NCBI GenBank assembly: GCA_964344485.1
Contig: CAYFNF010000002.1
Coordinates: forward strand, 176,273 to 240,272
Reading direction: 5' to 3'
DNA: 64,000 nt
Origin: an uncultured Gammaproteobacteria bacterium
Lineage (GTDB): Bacteria > Patescibacteriota > Patescibacteriia > UBA9570 > XYC2-FULL-38-9
Shown here: piece by piece, positions 28,639 to 59,087 of the stretch
How positions within the stretch are numbered: position 1 is the stretch's first letter
Layout: each line of letters begins with the position of its first letter
Notes under the pieces: generated by a model
What the model saw: only the letters and a program-made list of their open reading frames with translations
Told to the model about the DNA's origin: nothing
Databases searched by the model: none
Program-made: the position numbers and the translations under genes

Positions 28639-31600
28639 CTACTTCTCATATTCATCCCATGCTTTAATCTGCAAACCCATATTTCGCTCATTGTAGTCAT
28701 ACAACGCCATGATAATAGTCTTTGCAAGCTGTGTATTTGCAACTAACGCTACATTATGATCAATAGCAGTTCGTCGTATTCTAAACCCATCGCTAACGGT
28801 CTTGCGATTATATTGACGTGGAATGTTAATAATGAAATCAATTTTCCCCTGCTCTAGATACTCCAGAACGTTCGGGGATTTCTTCTCAGAGACCTTATGC
28901 AGTCTCTTGGCCGGAATCTTAAGCTTCTCCTTTAAGAACTCACCCGTGTGTTCTGTAGCGTAGATCGTATACCCCATGGTATGCAATTGCCGAATATATT
29001 TACCCAAGCGTGCTTTATCTTCATCACGACCAATGGACACTAATACATTCTTCTTTGGTAGCTGTAACTCAGCAGACAACAGCGCTTTGAGAACTGCCTC
29101 ATGATACGAGTCTCCAAAACTCGCTACCTCTCCAGTTGACCCCATCTCTACATACAGTACTGGGTCTGCCCCCTTAATACGTGAATATGAGAACTGCGGA
29201 GCTTTGACTACTACGTAATCAAGATCAATCGTATTATAATCTCCGCGTATATCATTTCCGAGCATGGCTTTGGTCGCAAACTCGATAAAATTGTATTTAC
29301 TCGCCTTAGAAACAAACGGAAAACTCCGCGATGCGCGCAAATTCAGCTCAATTACTTTTAATCTATTACCTTTTGCAAGGAATTGAATGTTGAACGGCCC
29401 GGTGATCTCTAACTCTTTCACGATCGCCCTGGTACGCATTTTTAAGCGGCGAATTGTCTCTAAATATGACTTCTGCGGTGGCATAACCACGGTGGCGTCT
29501 CCGGAGTGTACACCGGCATTTTCAATATGCTCAGTGATGGCGTATAGCACCATCTCGCCTTTTTGTGCCACACCGTCAATTTCGATCTCCTTTGCTCCTT
29601 CTATAAATTTTGATATCACTACAGGGTGCTCTTTTGAGACATGTGATGCTGATTCTAAATACTCGTCCAACCCCTCTTCATTGTACGCAATATTCATTGC
29701 CGCGCCTGACAGTACGTATGATGGTCTGATCAACACTGGGTATCCCACACGTTTGGCGAATGACTTCGCTTGATCAATGGTAGTTAACTCTTTCCATTGT
29801 GGTTGCTCAACTCCCAGCCGGTCTAGCAACGTTGAGAATTTATGTCGATCTTCAGCTCGATCAATATTCACAGGTGACGTTCCAAGAATCTTCACTTTTT
29901 CTTTGTGCAATGGAAGAGCTAGAGTGTTCGGTATCTGTCCGCCCATGGACACTACTGTCCCTGTTGCCTTCTCATAATCAATAATATCCATCACTCGCTC
30001 AAACGTCAGTTCTTCAAAGTACAACCGATCACAAATATCGAAGTCTGTTGAGACTGTCTCTGGATTGCAGTTAATCATAATCGTCTTCTTGCCGAGTTGC
30101 GCTGCGGTTTTTACTGTTTGCACACAACACCAATCGAATTCTACTGATGAGCCGATCCGATACGGCCCTCCACCAATCACTGCTAGAGAATTCTTATCCG
30201 GCTTTACATCATTCTCTTCGCCGTTATAGGTCATGTATAAATAATTTGTTCTTGCTGGAAACTCTCCGGCAAGAGTATCAATCTGCTTCACTACTGGTAG
30301 AATTTGGTTCTTTTTCCTCTGCTGTCGAATAGCTGCTTCTGAGGTATTGCGGATATCTGCAATTTGTTTGTCCGAAAAACCGCACTGTTTAGCTCGACGT
30401 AGAAGTTCAGATGACAACATCGTTTCCTTCTTCAGCTGCTGCTCCTGCGCTACAATGTTTCTAATCTTATATAGAAACCACCTATCAATTTTTGTTTTCT
30501 TATACAGCTCTTCAACTGAAGACCCTCGCATCATGGCCCGTGCTAATGCATAGAGTCGCTTATCAGTGGGATGGGTGATGTCTTGATTAGTGCCTTGAAA
30601 TTCTTTTACGTTACCAACTACCCCTTCAGCCCCGATATTTAGCATGCGCACTGCTTTCTGGATCGCCTCCTCAAATGTTCTACCTAGAGCCATGATCTCG
30701 CCTACACTCTTCATCTCTGTGCCAATTCGTCTGTTCGCTGCTTTAAACTTCTGTAAATCCCATCTCGGCATTTTGATAGCCACATAATCCAACGCGGGCT
30801 CAAAACATGCTTGTGTTTTCTTCGTGACCATATTCTGAATCTCGACAAGGCTGTATCCTAAGGCTAGTTTCGCAGCTACCCATGCTAGTGGATATCCTGT
30901 TGCTTTTGATGCTAGTGCAGAGGATCGAGAAAGTCGTGCATTGATTTCAATGACACGGTAATCCCCATTTTTCGGATTTAATGCATATTGAATATTGCAC
31001 TCTCCAATAATTCCAAGATGACGAACTGTATTCATTGCGATGGTTCGCAACGAGTGATACTCATCATTATTCAAAGTCTGCGACGGCGCAATAACGATGC
31101 TCTCTCCAGTATGTATACCCATAGGGTCAAAATTCTCCATATTACACACCGTCACACAGTTGTCATACGCGTCTCGTACTACCTCGTATTCGACTTCTTT
31201 CCAGCCTTCCAAGTACTCTTCAAGCAAAACCTGAGGGACTGATGCAAACGCTTCTTGCAACTTCTGAGTTAGTTCTTTCATTGACCCAATGCGTCCTGAT
31301 CCTTTACCTCCCAGCGAATACGCTGAGCGAACCATGAGTGGGAAACCGAGCTTCTTTGCTGCTTGCTTTGCTTGAGCAATAGTCGTGACCGCAAAACTTC
31401 GAGCGGTTTTGACTTGAATCTGTTTTAAATTCTTTGTGAACAGATCACGATCTTCTGTTTGCTCAATGGATCGTACTGGCGTACCCAACACAGCAACCTG
31501 ATGCTTCTTCAGCACTCCAGCGGTATCCAATTCTACCCCAACATTTAAAGCAGTCTGTCCGCCGAAGCTCAGGAGTATACCGTCAGGCTTCTCTTTTTCG

Positions 31601-31845
31601 ATTATTTGTTCAACGAATGTTTTTGTGAGCGGCAGGAAATAGACCCGATCTGCCATATCTGAATTCGTTTGTACTGTCGCAATATTAGGATTCACCAACA
31701 CAGTCTGAATTCCCTCTTCTTGCATGGCTTTTATAGCTTGAGAGCCCGAGTAGTCAAACTCACCTGCCTGGCCAATACGCAACCCTCCTGACCCGAGTAT
31801 CAGTACTTTCTTTGGTTTTCTAATTCTTTTTGACGCGCTACTCAT
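28639..31845 (-). CDS. carB: Carbamoyl-phosphate synthase large subunit
   Basis: Duplicated ATP-grasp halves and an MGS-like C-terminal domain. Length is 1068 aa. Confidence 0.95.
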   Translation of the reverse strand: MSSASKRIRKPKKVLILGSGGLRIGQAGEFDYSGSQAIKAMQEEGIQTVLVNPNIATVQTNSDMADRVYFLPLTKTFVEQIIEKEKPDGILLSFGGQTALNVGVELDTAGVLKKHQVAVLGTPVRSIEQTEDRDLFTKNLKQIQVKTARSFAVTTIAQAKQAAKKLGFPLMVRSAYSLGGKGSGRIGSMKELTQKLQEAFASVPQVLLEEYLEGWKEVEYEVVRDAYDNCVTVCNMENFDPMGIHTGESIVIAPSQTLNNDEYHSLRTIAMNTVRHLGIIGECNIQYALNPKNGDYRVIEINARLSRSSALASKATGYPLAWVAAKLALGYSLVEIQNMVTKKTQACFEPALDYVAIKMPRWDLQKFKAANRRIGTEMKSVGEIMALGRTFEEAIQKAVRMLNIGAEGVVGNVKEFQGTNQDITHPTDKRLYALARAMMRGSSVEELYKKTKIDRWFLYKIRNIVAQEQQLKKETMLSSELLRRAKQCGFSDKQIADIRNTSEAAIRQQRKKNQILPVVKQIDTLAGEFPARTNYLYMTYNGEENDVKPDKNSLAVIGGGPYRIGSSVEFDWCCVQTVKTAAQLGKKTIMINCNPETVSTDFDICDRLYFEELTFERVMDIIDYEKATGTVVSMGGQIPNTLALPLHKEKVKILGTSPVNIDRAEDRHKFSTLLDRLGVEQPQWKELTTIDQAKSFAKRVGYPVLIRPSYVLSGAAMNIAYNEEGLDEYLESASHVSKEHPVVISKFIEGAKEIEIDGVAQKGEMVLYAITEHIENAGVHSGDATVVMPPQKSYLETIRRLKMRTRAIVKELEITGPFNIQFLAKGNRLKVIELNLRASRSFPFVSKASKYNFIEFATKAMLGNDIRGDYNTIDLDYVVVKAPQFSYSRIKGADPVLYVEMGSTGEVASFGDSYHEAVLKALLSAELQLPKKNVLVSIGRDEDKARLGKYIRQLHTMGYTIYATEHTGEFLKEKLKIPAKRLHKVSEKKSPNVLEYLEQGKIDFIINIPRQYNRKTVSDGFRIRRTAIDHNVALVANTQLAKTIIMALYDYNERNMGLQIKAWDEYEK

Positions 31846-32903
31846 TTTTTTACTAAGTCAACAAATTGATCAAACAGAAACTCGGTGTCCTGTGGTCCAG
31901 GCGTTGCTTCTGGATGGAACTGAGTGGAAAAAAACGGCTTGCTTCTATGACGAATACCTTCAACTGTATTATCATTTGCATTCTTGAACCATAATTTCCA
32001 CTCCCTTGGAATCGACTCCTCTTTTACTGCGTATCCATGATTCTGTGTGGTGAGATAGCATCGATCTGTTCCTACTTCAATGCATGGTTGATTTTGCGCT
32101 CGATGACCGTACTTCATCTTGTACGTCTTTGCTCCAGCAGCGAGGCCCATGATCTGTGTACCTAAACAAATCCCAAAAATGGGCTTGTGTTGTGTCAGCG
32201 CTTTACGTAAGTACTCAACAGACTCTTTCGCCATGGTAGGGTCACCAGGCCCATTAGTAAGAAATAATCCGTCCCATCTTTCATCAAGGTAGTTATAATC
32301 CCACGGCACTCGCTTCACCTGTACTCCGCGATTTACAAGACAACGGATAATATTCTCTTTTGCACCAGTGTCCACAACAAGCACGCGTTTCCTTCCTTTT
32401 CCGATTACACGAGGACGAGAGATGCTAACTTCCGCAACTAGGTTTCGCTTATTTGGATCTTCAATTTTTACGTGAGGCACTGGCTCATCATCACCTACGA
32501 CAATCTGACCAAGCATGACTCCGTGCTTTCGTAATCGTTTAGTGACAGCTCGTGTATCTATACCAGTAATCGCCGGAATATCATGTTCTTTTAACCACTC
32601 GTCTAGGGATCGAGTAGCAGATGCATGAGAGTAATCGTAGGAGTAATCTTGGACGATCAATCCTTTAATTTGAATCTCTTTTGATTCAAACGGCCCCTTA
32701 CTTACACCGTAATTGCCTACCAGTGGGTAGGTCATAGTCAAAATTTGTCCACGAAATGAAGGGTCAGTAAAGGCTTCAGGGTACCCCACCATGCCAGTGG
32801 CAAAGACTGCTTCACCGGTCGTGCTCCTGGCTGCACCAAACGAATACCCATGATACGTAGTACCGTCAGTGAGTATTAATGCTGCTGGAGTGCGTTTTTT
32901 CAT
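31842..32903 (-). CDS. carA: Carbamoyl-phosphate synthase small (glutaminase) subunit
   Basis: Class I glutamine amidotransferase catalytic Cys block (GICLGTQ) and the CPSase small-subunit N-domain. There is a 4-nt overlap with carB. Confidence 0.9.
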   Translation of the reverse strand: MKKRTPAALILTDGTTYHGYSFGAARSTTGEAVFATGMVGYPEAFTDPSFRGQILTMTYPLVGNYGVSKGPFESKEIQIKGLIVQDYSYDYSHASATRSLDEWLKEHDIPAITGIDTRAVTKRLRKHGVMLGQIVVGDDEPVPHVKIEDPNKRNLVAEVSISRPRVIGKGRKRVLVVDTGAKENIIRCLVNRGVQVKRVPWDYNYLDERWDGLFLTNGPGDPTMAKESVEYLRKALTQHKPIFGICLGTQIMGLAAGAKTYKMKYGHRAQNQPCIEVGTDRCYLTTQNHGYAVKEESIPREWKLWFKNANDNTVEGIRHRSKPFFSTQFHPEATPGPQDTEFLFDQFVDLVKK

Positions 32904-32939: not shown

Positions 32940-33160
32940 ACGAATAAACGATGTGATTATATTGTATCAATGCTGGAGCTTTATAGAATTGTTGTTGTGT
33001 CATATTCATGCCACGAAACAGTATATCATAAAAAAATATTTTTGCAATGCTCGAGTGCACCTGTGGAAAACCGCACCCATGCATCCTTCATCTGCGTATT
33101 TTTTCAAGGGCGCTTGACAGAAGGGCAATATATCTGCAAGGTGCAGGTGAGGGGGTAGCA

Positions 33161-33379
33161 ATGTCGACAGAATCAAAGCCGACTACGTTCTTCTGCCCGG
33201 AATGCTCTGAGGAGCTGGCGCCCACCCGCGCGGTGGCGGCGAACCGGGCCGGAGTTTTTCTCGTCTATCGATGCACTACTTGCGATGAACGCCGATACGT
33301 TCAGGTACGCTGCATCGAAGCTGGCGGTCTCGCGCCTGTCAGGCGCTTCCGAGTGATGAGGCCGTCAGAAGTCAGATGA
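33161..33379 (+). CDS. Small zinc-ribbon protein (CxxC-17 aa-CxxC) in a GC-rich mini-cassette
   Basis: The ATG at 33161 is preceded by the strong RBS GGTGAGGGGG with a 5-nt spacer. The 72-aa product contains CPEC…CTTC. Local GC is about 58% versus about 42% in flanking DNA. The track ORF 33047..33379 is in the same frame and starts from an upstream Met. Confidence 0.5.
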   Translation: MSTESKPTTFFCPECSEELAPTRAVAANRAGVFLVYRCTTCDERRYVQVRCIEAGGLAPVRRFRVMRPSEVR

Positions 33380-33418
33380 ACTCCCTTTTTTTTTGAGAAA
33401 AGAGAAAAATCTTGTATA

Positions 33419-34642
33419 GTGGATCTAGAGCTCTCTATGAAAAAAGACGAATACTGCCCACATTGCTTACCAACAAAAAAGAAGCGACATACATCGTATC
33501 ATCTTGAATATTATATCGATCGTTGTGCAGCGCCTTTTTTAAAACTCACTCACATACTACGGCACCCATTCATCTTACGAGTCGCGGATCTGGTGTTTGA
33601 TGCGCTGTTTGACCTCTTCCGCTTCTTTAGAATTCTTTCATGTTCAAAAAACCCAAAACCAGAGATGCTCTATAATCGAAGTCTTCTGTTTTTCGACGAA
33701 GCAAAGAAACGAGGTATTGATATCTGCAATCTTCACTTCTTTGGCGCAAACACTAATGAATTTTTCTTTCGGCACAACGGAAAACGATATTACTATGAGG
33801 GTATCCCATTAAAAAATCATGACCATCCTATTATTGACATTGATAATAAATTCGATGTAAAACACCTGCTTCAAAAAAATGATATTCCAGTGCCTCGAGG
33901 ACGAGTATTTACATCGAAGAAGAACGCATTACGATACGGTGCTGAGTTGCACTTCCCACTTGTCGTGAAACCGAACGGTGGATCGTTGAGTTTTCATACT
34001 ACTGTCGATATACGAACATATGAGGAGTTGGAGCAAGCGTTCGATATTGGAAAGATCTTTCGACCAGATGTAATCGTGGAGGAGTTTATTACTGGCGACC
34101 TCTATCGTGCGACAGTCATCGGGCAAAAGCAAGTATTTGTCTGCAAAAAAGACAAAGCCAATGTAGTGGGCGATGGCGCTTCCACTATTGCACAGCTGAT
34201 CGAAGAAAAGAACGCTGATCCAAATCGAGGCGGAACTGACCAAAAAAATACCACATTGCATGTGATCGAAATTGATGAGCAAGTACAGCATCATTTGTTC
34301 GAACAACAGCTGACACTAGATTCCGTCTTACCGACTGGTAAAAAAGTGTACCTACACGACAAGTACATTCTGTCGCAAGGATGCGATATTATTGGATGCA
34401 CGGAAAAAACGCATCAGAAGAATAAAGACCTGTTCATACGCGTAGCAAGACTACTGCGAACCAACCTTGTCGGCATTGACATCATTATGCAAGATCCTGC
34501 TATTCCTTATACAGAGCAGAAATTTGGTATTATCGAAACCAATAGTCTTCCGTATATCGATATGCATCAAATCGTCTCGGACGGTGAGCCGGACAATGTT
34601 GCAGAAGCAGTATGGGACACCATGCTCGAACAACTTAAATAG
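33419..34642 (+). CDS. Stand-alone ATP-grasp ligase resembling the N-terminal and ATP-grasp domains of cyanophycin synthetase (CphA); it lacks the Mur-ligase half
   Basis: The blocks DIPVPRG…LVVKPNGGS…VIVEEFITGDLYR…NVVGDGASTIAQLIEEKNADPNRGG…IETNSLPYIDMH align with the CphA ATP-grasp segment (…HVTGDGTSTITELIDQENADPHRGDG…). Confidence 0.65.
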   Translation: MDLELSMKKDEYCPHCLPTKKKRHTSYHLEYYIDRCAAPFLKLTHILRHPFILRVADLVFDALFDLFRFFRILSCSKNPKPEMLYNRSLLFFDEAKKRGIDICNLHFFGANTNEFFFRHNGKRYYYEGIPLKNHDHPIIDIDNKFDVKHLLQKNDIPVPRGRVFTSKKNALRYGAELHFPLVVKPNGGSLSFHTTVDIRTYEELEQAFDIGKIFRPDVIVEEFITGDLYRATVIGQKQVFVCKKDKANVVGDGASTIAQLIEEKNADPNRGGTDQKNTTLHVIEIDEQVQHHLFEQQLTLDSVLPTGKKVYLHDKYILSQGCDIIGCTEKTHQKNKDLFIRVARLLRTNLVGIDIIMQDPAIPYTEQKFGIIETNSLPYIDMHQIVSDGEPDNVAEAVWDTMLEQLK

Positions 34643-34676: not shown

Positions 34677-36194
34677 CTAAACGTCGAGCTTTTCTTTTAG
34701 TAGTTGTGTCGCTGCTTCAGGGTTGATCTTTCCTTTTGTCTGCTTCATCACCTGTCCGACTAAGTACATTAACGCTTTATCTTTTCCATTCTGATAGTCT
34801 TGTACTACTTCAGAATTGTCAGCAATGATTGCATCTACGATTTTCTCTGTTTCTGCTTCATCAGAGATTTGTGTTAAGTCATGTTCCTCCATAATGATGC
34901 TTGGATCACCACCAGATTTAAACATGATACGGAGGATCTTCTGCGCTGCTGAGGAATTCACCTTTTTTTCATATACTAACGTGAGTAGTTCTGCAAAATT
35001 CTCTCGTGTAAACTGTATCTCAGAAAAATCTTTTCCTGATTCTTTTAACAAGCCGAATAACTCGGATGTAATCCACGACGTAGTCAGTCGGCCAATTTTC
35101 TTCCTATACTTTTTCCAAATCTCCTGGTCAGAACCTACGGTATCATCCAGCGAATTCAACCAGCCACGTAGCTCTGATATCACATCCTCGAAAAATTCAC
35201 CTACACGCGGGTCGGCGGTTAGTACCTTTGCATCGTTGTAACTCAGCTCATACTCTTCTGTAAAGCGATTTCTGCGCTCATATGGGAGTTCTGGCACTTG
35301 ATTACGCAATTGATCAAGTTCTTCTTGTGTGCGGATTATTGGCGGGATATCGGGCTCTGGAAAGTATCGATAGTCTGCCTCCCCTTCTTTTGTTCGCTGC
35401 GCAACCGTTATTCCTCGCTTATCATCCCATCCGCGCGTGGTCGTTTGTTCTGGTGCTTCATTCTTCTCCCATAACTCAGTCTGCCTCTCAATTTCATACT
35501 GCAGTGCTCGCTCGATGGAACGCGTAGAGTTCATATTCTTAATCTCTGTTTTTGGATACAACGCTGAATCGCCAAACTTTCTCAGCGAAATGTTTGCATC
35601 ACATCGAAGGTGCCCCTTTTCCATATCGGCCTGAGATGCACGTACATAGCGTGCGACTTGCTGTAACTCCTGAACAAAGACTCGTGCTTCTTGTGGTGAC
35701 CTGATATCAGGTTTGGTAACTAATTCTACCAGCGGTGTGCCCGCACGATTAAAATCTACAAGCGACTCTCCATCAGGACTGTGCTTTAACTTAGCTGCGT
35801 CTTCCTCTAAATGCACCCGCTCAATACGCACCCGTTTTGAATGCATGTCGTCTGGTAGGATATCGATATATCCATGTACCGCGAGTGGCTCATCATACTG
35901 AGAGATCTGATACCCTTTTGGTAGATCTGGATAGAAGTAGTTCTTGCGATCAAACTTTGTGAACAACGGGATCTCACAGTTCAACGCCAGAGCAAAAATC
36001 GTCCCTAGGCGAATCGCTTCTTGGTTCACTTGCGGCAAAGTGCCAGGGTGTCCGAGACAGATTGGACATGTAAATACATTTGGTTCATCACTATCTTGAT
36101 TCTCTGTACCGCAAAACATCTTAGACTTGGTATCTAGTCGAATATGAATCTCTAGTCCAATAACTACTTCATATTGTTCTTCGCGCTTTTCCAT
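34677..36194 (-). CDS. gatB: Asp-tRNA(Asn)/Glu-tRNA(Gln) amidotransferase subunit B
   Basis: GatB signature blocks (TKPDIRSPQEA, YFPEPDIPP) and a C-terminal GatB/YqeY domain. Confidence 0.95.
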   Translation of the reverse strand: MEKREEQYEVVIGLEIHIRLDTKSKMFCGTENQDSDEPNVFTCPICLGHPGTLPQVNQEAIRLGTIFALALNCEIPLFTKFDRKNYFYPDLPKGYQISQYDEPLAVHGYIDILPDDMHSKRVRIERVHLEEDAAKLKHSPDGESLVDFNRAGTPLVELVTKPDIRSPQEARVFVQELQQVARYVRASQADMEKGHLRCDANISLRKFGDSALYPKTEIKNMNSTRSIERALQYEIERQTELWEKNEAPEQTTTRGWDDKRGITVAQRTKEGEADYRYFPEPDIPPIIRTQEELDQLRNQVPELPYERRNRFTEEYELSYNDAKVLTADPRVGEFFEDVISELRGWLNSLDDTVGSDQEIWKKYRKKIGRLTTSWITSELFGLLKESGKDFSEIQFTRENFAELLTLVYEKKVNSSAAQKILRIMFKSGGDPSIIMEEHDLTQISDEAETEKIVDAIIADNSEVVQDYQNGKDKALMYLVGQVMKQTKGKINPEAATQLLKEKLDV

Positions 36195-36199
36195 ATGTG

Positions 36200-36622
36200 T
36201 TATAATCCTGTACTACCAAATCCCCCTTCGCCTCGAGCCGTGTCGTCAAGCTCTTCCACCTCTGAAACAGTTGCTGATTGTATGGGTTGAATCAACATCT
36301 GCGCAATCTTTTGATGCTTCTCCACTTGCACTGGTTCTTGACTGAGATTAATGAGTACTATTTTCACTTCACCCCGATAACCAGAATCAACCACACCAGC
36401 CATAGTAGTAATCCCCTCCTTAATTGCTCTGCCGCTCTTGTCCCATACTAATCCAACGTATCCGTCTGGTATTTGCATTGCAATACCTGTCGCTACTGCG
36501 TGTCGCTCTCCTGGTTTCAATGTAATCTCCTCTACAGAGAAAATGTCCATTCCTGCGTCCCCAGGGTGTGCATACTCAGGAATCTTTGCTTGATCATTGA
36601 TTTTCTTGATATTGATGTTCAT
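36200..36622 (-). CDS. dut: dUTP diphosphatase
   Basis: dUTPase motifs (GLVWDKSGRA, RGEGGFGSTG). Confidence 0.9.
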   Translation of the reverse strand: MNINIKKINDQAKIPEYAHPGDAGMDIFSVEEITLKPGERHAVATGIAMQIPDGYVGLVWDKSGRAIKEGITTMAGVVDSGYRGEVKIVLINLSQEPVQVEKHQKIAQMLIQPIQSATVSEVEELDDTARGEGGFGSTGL

Positions 36623-37245
36623 GATAATAGACGTTTAGATACTTCGTTATAAATAGTATTTGCATTTTCCTGCTTCGGTCCTTCTGAAGATACCTGTACC
36701 CAGGTGTCTTGTGATGTTGCGTATTCCTGAAAAAACGCACGTACTTTCCTATGAAATGCAAGCTCTTCTCTGTCCATCCGATTGAGCTCTTCCTCTTTCT
36801 TTCTTGCAATACCAACTTCAGGATCGATGTCTAAGTAGACCACAACATCAGGCTCCAGGCCATTGCGTGCATATTCATCCATAGTGAAAATAATATCCGC
36901 ATTCTCTAACTCTCGTCCACCAATTTGATACGCATATGTGGACCCAGAAAACCGATCACAAATCACTGTTTTCCCTTCTTCTAATGCTGGTATAATTACT
37001 TGCTCGATATGTTGCGACCGGTCGGCAAGAAAAAGAAATAATTCGGTCCGCGGATGCACTGCCTCATGATTCTCATGAAGAATCACATTACGAATCAGCT
37101 CTCCAACGCGTGTACCGCCTGGCTCATGCGTGATAATCACTTCCTGCCCTTCGTCCTGCAAGCGTTCAGCTAATAGATCAGAATGCTTAGTCTTTCCGCT
37201 GCCTTCACCGCCTTCAAATACAATAAAATGTCCCTTGTTACTCAT
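36619..37245 (-). CDS. tmk: Thymidylate kinase
   Basis: P-loop FEGGEGSGKT and a dTMP-kinase DRF-like block (CDRFSGS). Confidence 0.9.
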   Translation of the reverse strand: MSNKGHFIVFEGGEGSGKTKHSDLLAERLQDEGQEVIITHEPGGTRVGELIRNVILHENHEAVHPRTELFLFLADRSQHIEQVIIPALEEGKTVICDRFSGSTYAYQIGGRELENADIIFTMDEYARNGLEPDVVVYLDIDPEVGIARKKEEELNRMDREELAFHRKVRAFFQEYATSQDTWVQVSSEGPKQENANTIYNEVSKRLLS

Positions 37246-38686
37246 GCTTCTTAATGTCCTTTAATGGTAGTGGCCGATCTTGAGTATACTCTATTCCAAG
37301 TGTTAACGCAATCTCTGCTTTTTGTAGTTCAGCACCTAAATCACATGCATGAGAGAAGACAGAGACGCCCTGATCTCTAACAATGGTATTCATGAGCTCT
37401 ACTGCTGTTGTTCCAGTATAACGATCGAGCTTTTTTCCGCTCGGACTTAAATGCAACACCTCAATCTCGTGTTCCGGGATAATGCGAATCACGTAATTAC
37501 CGCGCGGATCTTGTTCGCACGGAAGTGATGGATAGAATCGAGAAATAATTTCTTGTGCTCGTTGATAGCTCTCTTCATAGATATGTGCTGATCCTGAAAT
37601 TGTAATTAAGTGCCCCATCTCCTTATCCAACGCATCTGCTATCTCTTTTTGCATAGTACGCAGAGCTAATGCATTTTCTGGCCACGCACGGAACATATCA
37701 TTTGACCGAAAGTACGCTGTAAGGAAAAGTAAATCATCCTTGATACATGCATGAACTAAGTTCAAACACGGTGGATGAGATGAGTCATTGTCGAGTTGTA
37801 CATTCCATAACATACCAATACCGCGGCGGGAGAATGGTTCTTTTTGTAATTTCGCAATAATCTTCTGAACTTGATTGATGCCATCTGCATTTCGTAGTCG
37901 CTTTCCATAGGTGTAACTTAAAGAGGGCTCTTCTTTTGCGGTCATTATTTGCGATTTGTATTTTTCGAAGTGTTCTTTTGTAAATGGAAAATACTCAGCG
38001 AAATCGATGTTCGTTGGGCACTCTTGAGTGATAATTGCTGCAATGTTGAGCAACTCACGCTGAGTTCCGCTCGTATGATGTGATTGCTTCTCTTCTCCGA
38101 ATCTCATAATAGTATGCAACAACTTCGGCCACACCTCAGCAACTGTTTTTCCACGATAGGTAAATAACGTTCCTTCAGATGGGTATCGATTGGTTTCAAT
38201 ATCTATCTCAGGATAAATCTGAGCCTCAGCCCATGGATGGGTGTCTTGAGTGCATTTATCAATAGCCTTCTGAACGTTCTTTGCGTCTAGTTCTTCTCGC
38301 ATATCAATAATCTCAATCTGCTGTCGCATATGGTCTAAATCTTTCTTTGGAATCTCCTTATCAATAACCACCTCTTCCTTGCCTATGACTTCTCGTCGCT
38401 CGTTGATTCCGTTTGCAAAGAACTGCACGAGTGCTTCTGCGGATTGGATCTTGTCCTGGCCACAGATAATAATTGTCCGGATAGTCGGATTTGCTAGAGT
38501 ATTGCGAATCAACGGGTTTATTCCTGTATTAGAATAGAGCTGCCCGATCACTTTAAATGACTGTTCGTCAAGTTTTGAAGCAAACACTTCGCGCGGAGTC
38601 CATAATGTCGCAATTCCAATACTCGACTGCTCGCTTCCAAGCACTAGATTCTCCTTATAGTAGATTGGCCATCCCGCAGTGTCCAT
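37238..38686 (-). CDS. Thymidylate-synthase-fold enzyme (ThyA/dCMP-hydroxymethylase family) with a ~170-aa N-terminal and ~80-aa C-terminal extension
   Basis: The core aligns with ThyA: HTSGTQRE (DRTGTGT), SRRGIGMLWN (SRRIIVSAWN), PPCL…FRSNDMFRAWPEN (PCH…YQRSCD…LGLPFN) and GSAHIY (GDTHLY). At 482 aa it is about twice the length of ThyA. Confidence 0.65.
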   Translation of the reverse strand: MDTAGWPIYYKENLVLGSEQSSIGIATLWTPREVFASKLDEQSFKVIGQLYSNTGINPLIRNTLANPTIRTIIICGQDKIQSAEALVQFFANGINERREVIGKEEVVIDKEIPKKDLDHMRQQIEIIDMREELDAKNVQKAIDKCTQDTHPWAEAQIYPEIDIETNRYPSEGTLFTYRGKTVAEVWPKLLHTIMRFGEEKQSHHTSGTQRELLNIAAIITQECPTNIDFAEYFPFTKEHFEKYKSQIMTAKEEPSLSYTYGKRLRNADGINQVQKIIAKLQKEPFSRRGIGMLWNVQLDNDSSHPPCLNLVHACIKDDLLFLTAYFRSNDMFRAWPENALALRTMQKEIADALDKEMGHLITISGSAHIYEESYQRAQEIISRFYPSLPCEQDPRGNYVIRIIPEHEIEVLHLSPSGKKLDRYTGTTAVELMNTIVRDQGVSVFSHACDLGAELQKAEIALTLGIEYTQDRPLPLKDIKKHE

Positions 38687-50190: not shown

Positions 50191-50261
50191 ATCAGACGCT
50201 GCTTTAACACTACAAAATTATACACGTGTGGACACGTCGCACATAGTATAACATTTTTTAG

Positions 50262-50298
50262 AAAAAAAAACAGCCTCGCTGTCACGCTGATGTGACAG
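50262..50298 (-). terminator. Intrinsic terminator at the 3' end of the GC-rich foreign gene
   Basis: The minus strand reads CTGTCAC-atcagc-GTGACAG followed by CGAGGCTG-TTTTTTTTT, 25 nt after the stop codon. Confidence 0.7.
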
Positions 50299-50322
50299 GG
50301 GCCTTGTAGCGATTGTTGCGTC

Positions 50323-51573
50323 TCAGTCCTCCACCTCCGGGAGGTCCGGCATCCAGCCTTCTGCTTGGCACTGCCCGAACTCGAACGGGATGCCCGTGTC
50401 CAGGCACTGGAGCTCGCCCATGCAGTGACGGTCGTACATGCAGGGCTGCCCGCGCGCGACCTTGCCGTGCACCCCGTGGCGATCGTAGAAGTCCTTCTCG
50501 AACGCCGGGGTCTGGTGGTACCGATGCTGGTTCCACCGGATCCAGAGCTCGTGGTCTCGACCGACCGGTGGGGCCTTGAGCCACTTGCGGTACGGCTGAC
50601 CCGGGACGTGCTCCGTCAGGTAGCGAGCGAGCTGCTCGCCGCTGTCCACCGCGTACTCCACGTACTCGTCGCCGTCGGCGTCGAGCACCAGTACAGGTGG
50701 CGGTGGCAGCTCCGTGTCCTCGGTGAGCACCAGGATCTCGTCCTCGGGCGCGACGTAGAAGTAACCGGAGTAGAAGAAGTCACCTCGTTCCACGGTGTAC
50801 GGCGGACCGAAGCCCTTGTTGAACTGCCGTAGTGCCTTCTTCTTGCCCGGGCTTCTCGCCGGACCGTCCAGGACCAGGTCGTCCCCGATCCGGACGCCGC
50901 GGAGCACCTGGGGCTTGGGCATGGTCTGCACGCGCCGCAGGTCCTCGGTCCGGACCTCGAGGTCGTTCGAGATGTCGGTCAGGTACTCGGAGCCCCACGG
51001 CTGTCCGTCGAAGACCCACAGGTCGGTGCCGAGTTCGCGCGGGATCCATGCGTTCGAGACCGGGTCGGCCTCCACGGGCTGCGGGAAGACATTCTCGGGC
51101 GGGGAGCCCAGCACCAGTTCCTCGGGCGGCACGTACGGGACGCGCATGTGAGTGCCCGGGATGGTGAGTCCACCACAGCTTGCGGGTCGACGGTCGTCGA
51201 GCTCCCGGACCACGTGACCGAACCGGTTGACCAGGTAGCCCGGGACCGGATCGTTGTCCGGACCAGCGTCGTGGAAGCACGGGTGGTGGTGCTCGTGGTG
51301 ATCCTGCTGCCAGACGCAGTGGCCCCACTCGATGCGGATCGAGCGGCCTTCGGGCAGGGTCTCGAGGCAGTAGCCCGAGCGGCACTGGCTGTCCACCTGA
51401 CACTGTGCTCCGATGGCCAGGTTGTGGGTGGTGCCGATCGCCGCGTCCCGGGTGTAGCCCTCGTACCGGTAGCCGTCCCAGGACCGTTCGCGGATGTGCA
51501 CGGACATCGAAGCCGCGCATCCACAGATGCAGAGCATCAACGCAACGCTCGCGAGTGCGTAAGTCTTACGCAT
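50323..51573 (-). CDS. Compositionally foreign (about 66% GC) secreted protein. Signal peptide, two terminal 4-Cys knots, a His-rich patch and an acidic Pro-rich core. No family recognised.
   Basis: The ATG at 51573 is preceded by GGAGGTGGAGGAGGA with a 6-nt spacer. The N-terminus MRKTYALASVALMLCICGCAAS is signal-peptide-like. Cys patterns are QC-x5-C-x4-C-x15-C near the N-terminus and PC-x5-C-x5-C-x11-C at the C-terminus. It also has HHEHHH and PPPPVLVLDADGDEY segments. The track's 434-aa version begins at an upstream non-ATG codon. Confidence 0.7.
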   Translation of the reverse strand: MRKTYALASVALMLCICGCAASMSVHIRERSWDGYRYEGYTRDAAIGTTHNLAIGAQCQVDSQCRSGYCLETLPEGRSIRIEWGHCVWQQDHHEHHHPCFHDAGPDNDPVPGYLVNRFGHVVRELDDRRPASCGGLTIPGTHMRVPYVPPEELVLGSPPENVFPQPVEADPVSNAWIPRELGTDLWVFDGQPWGSEYLTDISNDLEVRTEDLRRVQTMPKPQVLRGVRIGDDLVLDGPARSPGKKKALRQFNKGFGPPYTVERGDFFYSGYFYVAPEDEILVLTEDTELPPPPVLVLDADGDEYVEYAVDSGEQLARYLTEHVPGQPYRKWLKAPPVGRDHELWIRWNQHRYHQTPAFEKDFYDRHGVHGKVARGQPCMYDRHCMGELQCLDTGIPFEFGQCQAEGWMPDLPEVED

Positions 51574-51777
51574 GTCGCTTCCTCCTCCACCTCCGAAAAG
51601 CTCGAAGGTGTTCGTGTCGAAGTACAATCGATTCTTGCTACAGCAAAAGCACCCAAAGAGTGAACCTCTGCAGTAACAAGAATCTACATTAAAATACCGG
51701 CCTCTTTAGAGCTAAAGAGACACTATAAAATAGCAGTATTTTCCGTTTTTGTCAAACCGTATGAGCAAGACTATTCA

Positions 51778-54768: not shown

Positions 54769-57597
54769 TTATCGGACTCCTGGAGCTGGCCCAGAACCGA
54801 CTTTAATAAACTTTCCTAATGCGCTCTTTGCTGCTGAACCTGGAGAGACTTTTCCGTAGTCCGGATCGTCTGCAATGATATGTCCGTATCGCCGTAGCAT
54901 GCGTACTCCTTTATCAATGTCCCTATTCACTGCAGCAAATTCATCAGTACCTGTTAGACCCTGGCGCATCATCTCGTCACGTACTTCACGCAATGACGCG
55001 AGTAACTGAATATCTTGATGAGCATCTTGAATACGACCAGTCGCTTCTTCTATCGGAATTCCGAAGTTACGAGCGATGATCTCTTCGTGTTCAGGACCGA
55101 GTAAATCAACTGCATCATCTATTGGTACTCGTCCATGATACTCTATCTTTATTCTACCACCTCGTTCTGTAAAGGAAGCCATCACATTATCACTAGTGAA
55201 TGTTCCGCTGTCCTCTAACGCTGCACGCGCTTCTGCGATCTCTGCTGGGTCAAGTTCCACGTCAATATCTAATGCATCACGTTGTGCTTGAGCTGCGAGT
55301 TCAGCGGCTTGTACTGCTTCTTGCCTCTCTGCGAACCGCTCTATATCACCGGCGACTTGCTCTCCAGCAAATTCCCGGACTCGCTCAGCGCGGGGTATAG
55401 ACGGGTCATAATCCGGCAAGTAATCACTTTCTCGCGGAAGCGGCACTTCGTCTGGATGCACACCTTCATCTCCCCACCCAGCTATACCTTTCTTTGCATG
55501 ATACTCAGGAATATCTAACGCACGGTTTAACGCTTCACCGGGTGCTTTGATAATGTCTGCTGGAGTTGGGAGATCTCTGGTTGGCATGCGTCGTGCTCTG
55601 CGTATTGCTCGATCTGCTTCATCTTCAAAAAACCCAGTAGCTTGCGGGCCGGTATCCGTAGCAGGAACTTCAGTGCCATCTACTACAACAGCATCTGGGC
55701 CCCCGTCTAATCCGGTTACGTCAATAACACCGCCTTCCGCATGCATTTGATCTAGCATATCAGCTGACAGCGTGCTAGCGTGCGGAGGCTCTGGAAGCTC
55801 CACTGCATGTGGCGGCTCTCCAGGTGGGCCTTCTTGGAATAGGACTTCTGTTGCACCAGATGGACCGCCGCTCATTTCAATTCGCAATTTTCGTATATTT
55901 CCTTGAGCGTAGTACGCGGCATCCATTTCACCAGAACGAAGAGCAGTGGTTTCAATTCTCTGTGCTTCATCTAGCTCAGCTTGCATTTCATCTACTGTCA
56001 CTGTGCCGTCACGATACCCTGCTATCAATTGATCGCATCGTTCGGTTTGTGCAGCAGCAATTCCACGTAGCTCATCTAAATATGTATCATGCATATCACT
56101 CATTAGTTCTTGCGGTGTTGTTCCTGAATACTCTGTAACTCGCCCATCAGAGTCTATGACTGACATAAAGAGTGAATTCCCGTCTGACCGAAACTCTACT
56201 TGTTCTGTTATACCTAATCCATGTGGAAAGTCTTCGGATGAAGAGGTAATGAATGACGCGTAGCGCTGATCTCCGATCATTAAATAGCCATCATCTGATA
56301 TATCCATTCCCATCTCTCTCATCTGGGCAGCTGCATCGCTAGTAATATTAAAATCCACCCCATTGATCGTCTCTTGTTGAGTAAAGACTGCTTCGCGACG
56401 AATATCTGGTGCGTTTCTATCAACAGTACGCGGTTCATCCTCAGGTTGAACTGGTACATCATCAGGGAGGTCATCTCCACCTGTCTCACCTAGATCCGGA
56501 TCGTGCACCTCACCTGGGTCTACTTGCGCGACACCATCGAGCTCTGCATCATCCTCTAAAAAAGCTGCAGCTGAGCTATCCGGCAAGTCTTCTGGTGGAA
56601 GTGGAGTATTCATGACTGTCTCACCACCATCAACCAACGGCTCATCCACTGCAATGTCTGCTGGAAGGTGCGGAGTTCCTTCGACTGGAGTTACTGCTGG
56701 GCCGGCGACTCCAGCATCAAGTTCAGGTTCTGGAACAGGCACATCAGGCTCAAGCTCACCAAGCATAGTATCGCCACCAGGGAGCTCATCAACGTCCATG
56801 GCTACTGCCTCTCCATCACCTACTGCGACGTGTCTTATTTCAATATCACCATGGTCTCCAAGTTCAGCTGCTGCGTCCGCTTGAGAACGGAGTAATTGCC
56901 CTCCAACTGATCTAACTTCTTTTCCGTACGTGGCTGCAGGTGATGCAACATCATCAGTCAATGCCTCAGCAGCTTGCGCTTCTCCGATAAATAGTTTTCC
57001 AGCTGTACCAACAACTCCACGAACCATCTCAGCGTATAGACCAGACCCGAATGCTGCACCGACAGTGGTTGCCCATAAACGCAATCGCTCATCCTCACGT
57101 GCTGCTTGTTCTCGTACTACCACAATACGATCAGATTCTGCTTGTAGTAAGTCCGCTAACGCATCGCTCATTTCATCAGCGCGTTCAGCTTGCTGCTCTG
57201 GTAGCTGTTCATTCAAGTGATGGATCCGCTCTTCTCGCAACTGAATCATGAGTGGATTATCTCCCATTTGCTGTCCATTCAACTCTCCCCATGCAAGCAG
57301 AGTGTCCATATGCTCCTCTACTTCATCTGGGGTAAGATTCTCTACGCCTTTAGCTTTCGCAATAGCTTTCTCTACACCACTTATACGTTTTTTTGAACGC
57401 TTCTCATACGACGCCATGCCCATGGTGCCGCCAGTCATCAATCTTCGTCCCAAGTACAGCCCACCAAGCACGCCAGCGCCTGCGCCCGTTAATGCAGCAA
57501 CTGTCACTCCAGCAAGCACTCCTTTCTTAATTAAATTCTGTACAGTAAATTGATTTGCAATAACTTTGCCAATTTTTCCTTTTGGCTGCCACTTCAA
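54769..57597 (-). CDS. Large acidic membrane-anchored hypothetical protein (first of a five-gene cluster)
   Basis: 942 aa with an N-terminal TM helix (VLAGVTVAALTGAGAGVLGGLYL) and D/E/P/A/G-rich low complexity. The C-terminal ~250 aa are paralogous to 59088..60155 and end …VGSGPAPGVR. Apparent TTG start overlapping the upstream stop (TTGA). Confidence 0.6.
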   Translation of the reverse strand: MKWQPKGKIGKVIANQFTVQNLIKKGVLAGVTVAALTGAGAGVLGGLYLGRRLMTGGTMGMASYEKRSKKRISGVEKAIAKAKGVENLTPDEVEEHMDTLLAWGELNGQQMGDNPLMIQLREERIHHLNEQLPEQQAERADEMSDALADLLQAESDRIVVVREQAAREDERLRLWATTVGAAFGSGLYAEMVRGVVGTAGKLFIGEAQAAEALTDDVASPAATYGKEVRSVGGQLLRSQADAAAELGDHGDIEIRHVAVGDGEAVAMDVDELPGGDTMLGELEPDVPVPEPELDAGVAGPAVTPVEGTPHLPADIAVDEPLVDGGETVMNTPLPPEDLPDSSAAAFLEDDAELDGVAQVDPGEVHDPDLGETGGDDLPDDVPVQPEDEPRTVDRNAPDIRREAVFTQQETINGVDFNITSDAAAQMREMGMDISDDGYLMIGDQRYASFITSSSEDFPHGLGITEQVEFRSDGNSLFMSVIDSDGRVTEYSGTTPQELMSDMHDTYLDELRGIAAAQTERCDQLIAGYRDGTVTVDEMQAELDEAQRIETTALRSGEMDAAYYAQGNIRKLRIEMSGGPSGATEVLFQEGPPGEPPHAVELPEPPHASTLSADMLDQMHAEGGVIDVTGLDGGPDAVVVDGTEVPATDTGPQATGFFEDEADRAIRRARRMPTRDLPTPADIIKAPGEALNRALDIPEYHAKKGIAGWGDEGVHPDEVPLPRESDYLPDYDPSIPRAERVREFAGEQVAGDIERFAERQEAVQAAELAAQAQRDALDIDVELDPAEIAEARAALEDSGTFTSDNVMASFTERGGRIKIEYHGRVPIDDAVDLLGPEHEEIIARNFGIPIEEATGRIQDAHQDIQLLASLREVRDEMMRQGLTGTDEFAAVNRDIDKGVRMLRRYGHIIADDPDYGKVSPGSAAKSALGKFIKVGSGPAPGVR

Positions 57598-58397
57598 TAC
57601 ATATGGGCCAAATTTACTCCACCTAAATCTTTATACAGTTGATATATAGGCGCAGCGTCTGCAAACTGCTCTTGTGCGCGAGCATCAGCAAGTGCGATCT
57701 GTTCATGGACCGCTGCATCCACGCTATCTGCCATGAGTTCTGCGCGAGCTTCATCGTACTGCTCTTCTGCTTCAAATCGATCTACCATCGCAGCGTATTT
57801 GTCTTCAGCTCCTTTACCGCGCAGCATTCGGCCCAAATCTTGTTTAAAGAATCCTCGAATACCTTTACTTCGTTTCTCGGTAGTATCTGCTTGAGCTAAG
57901 CGCTGTCGTGCTTCATGGAGCTCTACTGCACGACCACCCTCTTCTGCGCCCCGATGTTCATCTAATAGCATTTGATATCGCTCTTGTGCTTCAGCGAGCT
58001 CATCTTTCACTTGCTCATGCTGCCACTTCTTTTCACGAGAAAAAAGTGCAGAGACACGTAGCTTTCTTCGTTCCGCTTCTTTTTGTGCAATTAATCGCTT
58101 TGCTGCGTCTATCTGTAAAACTAAACTTTGCTCGGCTGATAATGAGTGTGTATACACGGTCTCTATGGTTTGTTGCTCCGGAGGCTCCACTGCAACATCT
58201 GCTGCTGTGGCTTCTGCTATGACGTCTGCGCCCTCTCCGCGCACCTCTTCACCCATATCATGAGCACGACCCACCATCTCATCAGCAGCGTTGTCAACTA
58301 CTTCCAATGTTAACTCAGGACCATCCGGCTCCACCTCCGGTGGAACGTCGGGTTGTCGCTCTGCCTCCGCTTCTCGTCGTCGTGCGGGATCGCCCAT
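57594..58397 (-). CDS. Acidic coiled-coil hypothetical protein
   Basis: 267 aa, E/R/A-rich with predicted coiled coil, tightly linked in the cluster. Confidence 0.5.
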   Translation of the reverse strand: MGDPARRREAEAERQPDVPPEVEPDGPELTLEVVDNAADEMVGRAHDMGEEVRGEGADVIAEATAADVAVEPPEQQTIETVYTHSLSAEQSLVLQIDAAKRLIAQKEAERRKLRVSALFSREKKWQHEQVKDELAEAQERYQMLLDEHRGAEEGGRAVELHEARQRLAQADTTEKRSKGIRGFFKQDLGRMLRGKGAEDKYAAMVDRFEAEEQYDEARAELMADSVDAAVHEQIALADARAQEQFADAAPIYQLYKDLGGVNLAHMY

Positions 58398-58403
58398 ATG
58401 ATT

Positions 58404-58760
58404 TTAACTCGTCTGACTTAGTGTATTTTTTATCTCGTCAATTTTCTTCTGGTCTATTCTGGATCGAATATGTGAAATCACATCTTGTTGTTGTTTTTTC
58501 AGTTGCGTGATTTGTGCATGGAATTCGTTGAACGCATTTGTCATCTGCTCTAAACAGTCGCGCAAATCTTTCTGCTCTTGCTCTTTTTCGTTTGGTTGTT
58601 CAGCTGAAGGTGCCTGCGGTGGTGATTGCTGCTGGGGAGTCGCCTGAGGCTGCGCTGGTTGTGGTGGTACTCCTTGCTGAGCAGGTGCTTGAACAGTAGC
58701 GACCGGTTGCTGCGGCGCCTGTTGAACTGGTTGTGGTGGTACCCCTTGCTGGACAGTCAT
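58404..58760 (-). CDS. Gln/Pro-rich small hypothetical protein with a C-terminal coiled coil
   Basis: N-terminal QQGVPPQPxQQ repeats, then a helical segment. Confidence 0.45.
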   Translation of the reverse strand: MTVQQGVPPQPVQQAPQQPVATVQAPAQQGVPPQPAQPQATPQQQSPPQAPSAEQPNEKEQEQKDLRDCLEQMTNAFNEFHAQITQLKKQQQDVISHIRSRIDQKKIDEIKNTLSQTS

Positions 58761-58764
58761 AGTG

Positions 58765-59067
58765 TTATTTTTTTGCCGAGGTCATTAACTCTTGCTTCAT
58801 CTGTTGAATCTCCTCAAGGATAATCTCAGGTAAATTTGGAACATGTTGTAGCACTACTTTCATCTGCTCTTCTTCTCCTAATCCTTGCATCTGCTGTAGT
58901 GTCTGCTCGGTCTGCTGCTCTGGAATCGCTGCCATCACTCGCAACATCACACGCTTGTGAATGAGTTCATTCATTTGTTGAAGCATCTGAAGCTTTCGCT
59001 CTTCAGGTAGATTTGCTAAGCCAAGTTCGACAAATATATTTCCTTGAACATATGTAGTTGCAGACAT
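58765..59067 (-). CDS. Small Gln/Glu-rich helical hypothetical protein
   Basis: 100 aa, with a 4-nt gap to its neighbours. Confidence 0.45.
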   Translation of the reverse strand: MSATTYVQGNIFVELGLANLPEERKLQMLQQMNELIHKRVMLRVMAAIPEQQTEQTLQQMQGLGEEEQMKVVLQHVPNLPEIILEEIQQMKQELMTSAKK

Positions 59068-59087
59068 ATGAAAATATTACTTATGAA

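Follow-up and report, generated by a model that had tools for sequence, protein, structure and literature searches.

An orphan zinc-ribbon reading frame on DNA of foreign composition, probably a chance neighbour of an uncharacterized ATP-grasp ligase gene in Patescibacteria

We analysed a 64,000-nucleotide stretch of DNA (hereafter, the window) from contig CAYFNF010000002.1 of assembly GCA_964344485.1, which derives from an uncultured bacterium of the lineage Patescibacteriota. The locus in question consists of a 72-amino-acid (aa) open reading frame (ORF) at 33161..33379 (+) and the gene for a stand-alone ATP-grasp protein that follows it on the same strand (33437..34642, +). We interpret the locus as an orphan zinc-ribbon ORF, carried on an insert of foreign composition, that probably lies by chance upstream of a native, uncharacterized ATP-grasp ligase gene of Patescibacteria. 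On balance, we regard it as probable that two unrelated things, a native ligase gene and a foreign insert with an orphan ORF, stand side by side here, and that their adjacency is coincidental. Judged from the sequence comparisons described below, the small protein does not appear to serve the ligase as a conserved substrate, carrier or regulator.

The ATP-grasp gene has native composition (41.5% GC; whole window, 43.9%). In an earlier annotation made from the sequence alone (the first-pass annotation), the gene had been given a start at GTG 33419, 39 nt downstream of the small ORF, and a product of 407 aa. We place the real start at ATG 33437, 57 nt downstream of the small ORF, with a product of 401 aa, because the homologues align from M-x4-YCxHC and because GTG 33419 lies inside a -10-like hexamer. 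This hexamer forms part of a sigma-70-like promoter (TTGAGA-16 nt-TATAGT, 33393..33420, +), which has 10 of 12 consensus matches and is located after the stop codon of the small ORF. We propose that the ligase gene would be expressed from this promoter of its own, with a short leader lacking a Shine-Dalgarno sequence.

The encoded protein is a member of a family that is widespread in Patescibacteria. More than 186 homologues were found, and the best 120 of these, which are mostly full-length and share 37-54% identity with the window protein, carry organism names, where given, of Patescibacteria or unclassified bacteria only. Apart from automatic Joint Genome Institute (JGI) labels, 'cyanophycin synthetase' and 'D-alanine-D-alanine ligase-like' among them, these 120 proteins carry the annotation 'hypothetical'. 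In addition, we recovered 44 genomic loci of the family from many Patescibacteria classes; the names in their records include Microgenomates, Parcubacteria, Uhr-, Kerfeld-, Roizman-, Davies-, Doudna-, Yonath- and Falkowbacteria. When 28 sequences were aligned (37-53% identity over 97-99% of the length), residues C7, C10 and H18 of the motif YCxHCxPTKRKxHxxxH, whose coding region in the window is 33455..33502 (+), were found to be invariant. The marks of the family are a length of ~400 aa, the sequence YCxHCxPTKRKxH, a GSLSxH P-loop and the sequence NSLPYIDMH, and all of these are present in the window protein. We found no description of a stand-alone Patescibacteria ATP-grasp family in the literature; a 'cyanophycin synthetase' has been reported in some Saccharimonadia metagenome-assembled genomes (bioRxiv 10.64898/2026.09.16.751625). 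In several loci of the family, tRNA genes adjoin the ATP-grasp gene: tRNA-Ile(tat/gat) or tRNA-Val is located upstream in L032, L036, L039, L041 and L043, and tRNA-Ser lies directly downstream in L023, L034 and L035.

The AlphaFold2 (AF2) model of the protein has a predicted local distance difference test score (pLDDT) of 92. Residues 1-~65 are predicted to form a Zn knuckle and two long helices arranged as a helical hairpin, and residues ~65-400 form an ATP-grasp domain of the CphA-G/GshF type with a G-omega insertion. The NCBIfam model for cyanophycin synthetase (TIGR02068) matches residues 142-404 of the 407-aa ORF along positions 212-472 of its 862 positions (expectation value, E, 1.6e-65), and the sequence match to CphA1 covers residues 136-396 (E 1e-60). 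By fold, the best matches were TeCphA1, GshF and CphA2, and those to a graspetide maturase and to ArgX were far weaker. The best was the G domain of TeCphA1 (7wae; E 1e-28; template-modelling score, TMq, 0.71; ~30% identity). Sequence and fold matches thus bear out the earlier description of a stand-alone CphA-like ATP-grasp protein without the Mur-ligase modules. The protein had also been said to track the N-terminal domain of CphA; here the description fails, in that only the G (ATP-grasp) domain is matched and the N domain is not.

Residue roles described for TeCphA1 (PMC9427784) were mapped onto the family through a hidden Markov model alignment. Residues K220, K261, R309, D431, E450 and N452 of TeCphA1, which serve ATP, Mg and the acyl-phosphate (PMC9427784), correspond to K138, K178, R224, D348, E367 and N369, all invariant in the family. 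This invariance suggests that the protein should be active as an ATP-dependent carboxylate-amine ligase. If it works like CphA-G and GshF, it would phosphorylate a carboxylate with ATP and Mg, yielding an acyl-phosphate, and would then join an amine to it. The region 33437-34642 would accordingly be a native gene for a catalytically competent ATP-grasp carboxylate-amine ligase from an uncharacterized family that extends across the Patescibacteria.

The residues of the acceptor pocket are unlike those of cyanophycin synthetase. The P-loop residue His267 of TeCphA1 is replaced by Leu184 in 27 of 28 family sequences, Asn394 by Ile or Val at position 311, Gly456 by Tyr, and Arg458 by Asp375 in all 28 sequences; Arg323 is conservatively retained as Lys or Arg. 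In TeCphA1, Asn394 and Arg458 recognize aspartate, and Arg458 holds the alpha-carboxylate of the incoming aspartate (PMC9427784). Because of this difference in the pocket, the substrate is probably not aspartate or cyanophycin. The reversed charge at the position of Arg458 suggests that the pocket might accept a cationic nucleophile, or one without an alpha-carboxylate. We considered and rejected the identification of the window protein as a cyanophycin synthetase, in that the N and M domains are absent, the score, 222 bits, falls far short of the cut-off of 850, and the residues that recognize aspartate are replaced. From these sequence features, the family appears to be a third, uncharacterized branch beside CphA and GshF, and we consider it likely that this Patescibacteria ATP-grasp family has a distinct and as yet uncharacterized ligase specificity.

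Do the two genes form a system? The first-pass annotation had proposed that the small ORF encodes either a precursor, in a pair resembling those of ribosomally synthesized and post-translationally modified peptides (RiPPs), or a regulatory zinc-ribbon partner, and it had named conservation of the pairing in related genomes as a check. We used 48 related ATP-grasp loci for sequence searches, 46 for the clustering of neighbouring ORFs and 45, those with enough upstream sequence, for a count of small ORFs. Searches of the 48 loci by tblastn and blastn with the small ORF and the insert found nothing, and clustering of the ORFs around the gene in 46 loci revealed no shared neighbour of any kind. 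Small same-strand ORFs with at least two CxxC pairs were found upstream of the ATP-grasp gene in 3 of the 45 loci, where 0.85 were expected from the loci themselves. One of these three is cytidine-deaminase-like (128 aa), one is of the DnaJ type (CxxCxGxG) and one is unrelated; the three bear no relation to one another, and none is like the window ORF. The pairing is therefore absent from the 45 related loci, and the two genes are most likely chance neighbours; neither a precursor nor a regulatory partner is supported by a homologue, a pairing or a conserved neighbour. A likeness to graspetide maturases fares no better, the match to PsnB having an E of ~1e-10 and a TMq of 0.37, compared with 1e-28 and 0.71 for CphA and GshF. 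We also considered two further possibilities and discarded them. The idea that other genomes carry a conserved GC-rich element ahead of the ATP-grasp gene was rejected: the windows of raised GC content found there are unmatched by the insert, in some loci they coincide with adjacent tRNA genes, and the search revealed no element common to the loci. The gene neighbourhood likewise gives no clue to the function of the ligase, there being no conserved neighbour in the 46 loci.

The small ORF lies within a GC-rich segment of ~340 bp (33047..33385, to which no strand is assigned) in the 533-bp intergenic region that separates the ATP-grasp gene from the divergent carA gene. In 40-nt windows the segment has 52-75% GC, and it is flanked on both sides by AT-rich sequence of 25-35% GC. 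The earlier statement that the GC content of the ORF is far above that of its flanks is confirmed: it reaches 59.8%, against the window mean given above, and the region stands ~4 standard deviations above that mean (200-nt windows, excluding the second GC-rich cassette described below). Our translation of the ORF is identical to the protein quoted in the first-pass annotation, and the strong Shine-Dalgarno-like sequence GGTGAGGGGG noted there is present (33146..33155, +), 5 nt before ATG 33161. The product is basic (isoelectric point 9.1; 11 Arg and 1 Lys) and has Cys at residues 12, 15, 38 and 41, plus 51. The two CxxC pairs of the proposed zinc-ribbon motif are thus real, but they are spaced as CxxC-x22-CxxC and not by 17 residues as had been given. 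A 17-nt imperfect inverted repeat (82% complementary) joins the start region of the ORF (33157-33173) to the region encoding the CxxC of the ATP-grasp protein (33451-33467), probably by chance.

The resemblance of the product to a zinc ribbon is generic. Pfam gave 23 matches, mostly to zinc-ribbon or zinc-finger families and all under the gathering score (best E 0.004), and PHROGs gave weak, generic zinc-finger matches only (best E 0.0098). The AF2 model made from the single sequence has a pLDDT of 70 overall and shows a beta-sheet, with values of ~76-87 (means of 10-residue blocks) across residues 11-50; the five AF2 models disagree, ranging in pLDDT from 42 to 70. A Foldseek search with the model returned no match at E up to 0.001. 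These sub-threshold Pfam matches and predicted beta strands agree with the earlier view of the product as a zinc ribbon, at the level of a general likeness.

Is the small ORF a gene? Its frame remains open from ATG 33047, where the GC-rich segment begins on the left, and thus spans the whole segment, allowing an alternative reading of 110 aa (33047..33379, +). It is the sole frame that does so; no ORF in any other frame covers the segment. A TATTTT box at 33037-33042, 4 nt upstream of ATG 33047, resembles the arrangement of the leaderless-style native genes described below, and either ATG 33047 or ATG 33161 may be the start codon in use. In 20,000 composition-matched Markov simulations of the segment, an ORF reached 72 aa or more in 37% of runs and 110 aa or more in 1.1%; ORFs of 60 aa or more that also carried CxxC-x10-30-CxxC arose in 0.15%. 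The length of the small ORF alone is therefore unremarkable, but the zinc-ribbon pattern can hardly be put down to chance. No homologue of the small ORF was found in a word-indexed search of 5.8 billion clustered proteins, and none of the 110-aa version when phmmer was run in full against 1.84 billion representatives. There was likewise nothing in viral and metagenome contigs (tblastn-confirmed scans) or in plasmids and phages (blastn), and no match in the PDB or PADLOC. A structured RNA in the GC-rich patch was considered as an alternative and ruled out: Rfam gave no gathering-level match in the window and chance-level matches only at E up to 10, the tRNA and tmRNA scans of the patch found nothing, and the folding z-scores of the two strands are -0.93 and -0.51. 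In our judgement, the small ORF probably is, or until recently was, a genuine coding sequence, and it may be expressed.

The small ORF also differs from the native genes in the composition of its product and in its signal for translation. The ratio R/(K+R) of the product is 0.92, against 0.31-0.61 in native proteins. Among the 51 ORFs of at least 150 aa in the window, Shine-Dalgarno 4-mers precede 10; these are weak and occur at about the rate expected by chance, so that there is no enrichment. In about a quarter of the native genes, a strong TATAAT-like box lies no more than ~8 nt from the ATG, in a leaderless style; examples are carA ('tatactcacATG') and the gene at 7453 ('tataattaatgtATG'). 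This suggests that initiation in this organism is largely leaderless or independent of Shine-Dalgarno sequences. Only two genes of the window have a long Shine-Dalgarno sequence, namely the small ORF and a 416-aa ORF at 50323-51573. The GC content, the R/(K+R) ratio and the strong Shine-Dalgarno sequence in a genome without enrichment of such sequences all point to a foreign origin, and the earlier claim that the small gene was acquired separately probably holds. We propose that 33047-33385 would be a foreign insert in the divergent promoter region of carA and the ATP-grasp gene, and that the insert may have brought the zinc-ribbon ORF by horizontal transfer along with its own Shine-Dalgarno sequence.

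The second GC-rich cassette that had been reported for the window is indeed present, at 50323..51573 (-). It encodes a lipoprotein-like orphan of 416 aa, has 66.7% GC (0.69/0.44/0.87 at the three codon positions) and is preceded by the Shine-Dalgarno sequence GGAGGTGGAGGAGGAAG. The product carries a lipoprotein-type signal, MRKTYALASVALMLCICGC, and 13 Cys, and no homologue was found among 5.8e9 proteins or in Pfam, PHROGs, PADLOC or the PDB. The cassette is placed between a native membrane ORF and a gene for a UvrD/PcrA-like helicase. By eye, its flanks (50230-50322 and 51574-51777) contain a TTGACA-containing region upstream and a hairpin with a T-run downstream. The 33-kb insert and the second cassette are unrelated in sequence and in flanks. 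Neither cassette has direct or inverted repeats at its flanks, no target-site duplication and no genes for mobility were found at either, and the window holds no second copy of the GC-rich segment. An origin from a mobile element or a miniature inverted-repeat transposable element was rejected on these grounds, there being no repeats, target-site duplication, second copy or shared cassette flanks. A recurring 12-mer proved to be a low-complexity T-run, and the apparent polylinker or cloning scar (XhoI, SalI, ClaI, XbaI and SacI sites within 400 nt) has a site density equal to the window background. The simplest reading is that the cassettes were acquired horizontally from unknown high-GC donors.

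Several observations weigh against the account given above, in which a foreign insert with an orphan gene happens to lie beside a native ligase gene, and each of them lends itself to another explanation. The GC content of the small ORF is nearly flat across the three codon positions (0.59/0.58/0.63), a weak coding signal compared with that of the second cassette, and we detected no sigma-70-like promoter ahead of ATG 33161. The flat signal and the total lack of homologues would also fit non-coding foreign or decayed DNA, in which the ORF is unexpressed and resembles a zinc ribbon as a relic or by coincidence; the ease with which an ORF of this length arises in simulations and the disagreement among the AF2 models point in the same direction. 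We consider this explanation rather unlikely, yet it deserves to be taken seriously, for the zinc-ribbon pattern and the 110 open codons are rare in the same simulations, the frame is the only one open across the segment, the Shine-Dalgarno sequence is correctly spaced, the core of the product is modelled with good scores from a single sequence, and the segment is not a structured RNA. Moreover, no donor of either cassette could be identified, and both might be artefacts, arising from a chimeric assembly or from sequence introduced after assembly. Such an origin would account for two unrelated segments (60% and 67% GC) in a genome of 44% GC that shows no enrichment of Shine-Dalgarno sequences, each with a single ORF behind an unusually long one, without homologues among billions of proteins, and with sharp boundaries devoid of flanking repeats or mobile-element genes. 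We nevertheless regard it as improbable: each insert has native sequence on either side in a single contig, an arrangement that assembly chimeras seldom produce; both lie in intergenic DNA and disrupt no gene; the protein of the second cassette looks natural, with its lipobox signal peptide and strong GC signature at the third codon position; and the polylinker-like cluster of restriction sites occurs at the background rate.

The remaining objections concern the relation between the two genes. No intrinsic terminator was found between the small ORF and the promoter-like site of the ATP-grasp gene, so that read-through and co-transcription are possible, and the closest ATP-grasp homologue among the matches listed is only 54% identical, so that a recent, lineage-specific partnership could have escaped the comparison. 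The small zinc-ribbon protein might then be a partner of the ligase in this lineage, co-transcribed with it and acting as a substrate or RiPP-like precursor, a LysW-like carrier or a regulator. In keeping with this idea, the two genes are close together on one strand; ATP-grasp enzymes acting on zinc-ribbon carriers exist, and ArgX-LysW (3vpb) is among the weaker fold matches; and G domains of the CphA type elongate a peptide at its C-terminal carboxylate (PMC9427784). Against it stand the absence of pairing and of a conserved neighbour across the related loci, the orphan status of the small ORF and its lack of any LysW-family match at E up to 1, a C-terminus that is basic (...RPSEVR) and not an acidic tail of the carrier type, the distance of the ATP-grasp protein from LysX, RimK and the graspetide maturases, the independent promoter-like site of the ligase, and the age of the ligase family, which is much greater than that of the insert. 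We therefore judge a partnership to be very unlikely. Very unlikely, too, is the combined reading, in which a peptide or amino-acid ligase of a new type has recently captured the acquired zinc-ribbon protein as its substrate, carrier or regulator. The coincidental adjacency of a native ligase gene and a foreign insert remains the explanation that we favour.

Other features of the window deserve brief description. The pair is bordered by carB and carA on one side (28639-32903, minus strand) and by gatB, dut, tmk and a thyA-like fusion on the other (34677-38686, minus strand). The last of these (37238-38686, -) encodes a protein of 482 aa with three domains, namely an N-terminal one that is MtrA-like, a thymidylate synthase and the pterin-binding DUF4346. 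It forms part of a series of genes for nucleotide metabolism (carAB, dut, tmk) that is unusual for many Patescibacteria. Farther downstream (54769-60155, -), there are three large acidic ORFs of low complexity, of 942, 267 and 355 aa, with raised GC contents of 0.50-0.59 in patches. The 942-aa and 355-aa ORFs, the two of the three that were scanned, gave no Pfam domain and resemble each other at the C-terminus (...GSGPAP[G]VR / ...GSGPAPR).

What do these findings mean for the biology of Patescibacteria? A conserved, uncharacterized family of ligases in the CphA-G/GshF clade is now clearly defined, and the residues of its acceptor pocket give a testable hint about the substrate. If this is indeed a new type of ligase, its product might be an undescribed one, for instance a polymer, a modification of the cell envelope or a peptide made without the ribosome. 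The automatic 'cyanophycin synthetase' labels on members of the family could mislead metabolic reconstructions of these symbionts. The two orphan GC-rich genes with Shine-Dalgarno sequences, if genuine, would be a mark of recent import from unknown high-GC donors. A functional pairing would amount to a new system of a ligase and a small protein in a poorly understood group; the evidence argues against it.

Comparison with known systems places the locus as follows. It is superficially like the LysW and LysX/ArgX systems, in which the gene for a small zinc-ribbon protein lies beside that for an ATP-grasp ligase. LysW-type carrier proteins have an acidic C-terminal tail ending in Glu. Unlike them, the small ORF ends in a basic sequence (...VMRPSEVR) without an acidic tail, and no LysW model is present among its Pfam and NCBIfam matches at E up to 1. 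The graspetide systems (PsnB, 7dro) likewise have an ATP-grasp enzyme beside a small ORF, but the window protein shares only 16-17% identity with PsnB in the fold alignment, its family has no conserved precursor, and the product of the small ORF looks like a folded Zn ribbon and not like a precursor made up of a leader and a core peptide. Comparison of the ligase with the RimK and LysX families gave scores below the cut-offs (TIGR00768, 40 against 143 bits; LysX, 36 against 276 bits), its fold match to ArgX had a TMq of 0.42, and D-Ala-D-Ala ligases, PsnB and ArgX reached a fold E of only ~1e-10 with TMq below 0.45. The second-best relative is the C-terminal ATP-grasp module of GshF/GshAB (3ln6 and 3ln7; fold E 6e-28, TMq 0.71; NCBIfam E 1e-49), which belongs to the same clade of ATP-grasp proteins with an omega insertion. 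The window protein differs from GshF in having no GshA (glutamate-cysteine ligase) domain, so that it matches positions 486-754 of the model only and scores 169.5 bits against a cut-off of 425; at the position of Arg458, it has PYIDMH where GshF has Met or Tyr (PMC9427784). The closest relatives are the G domains of CphA1 and CphA2, of which 7wae, 7lg5, 7ta5 and 8fxh are example structures. Like them, the window protein has the G-lid and G-omega modules, with the insertion block GDG.STI..LI..KN...RG, and the same chemistry is expected of it, that is, ATP-dependent activation of a carboxylate followed by formation of an amide. With 221.6 bits, it stays below the 850-bit cut-off of TIGR02068, and it differs from CphA1 in lacking the polymer-anchoring N domain of ~160 aa and the MurE-like M domain. 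In contrast to CphA, this family carries an N-terminal module of its own, the predicted Zn knuckle and helical hairpin.

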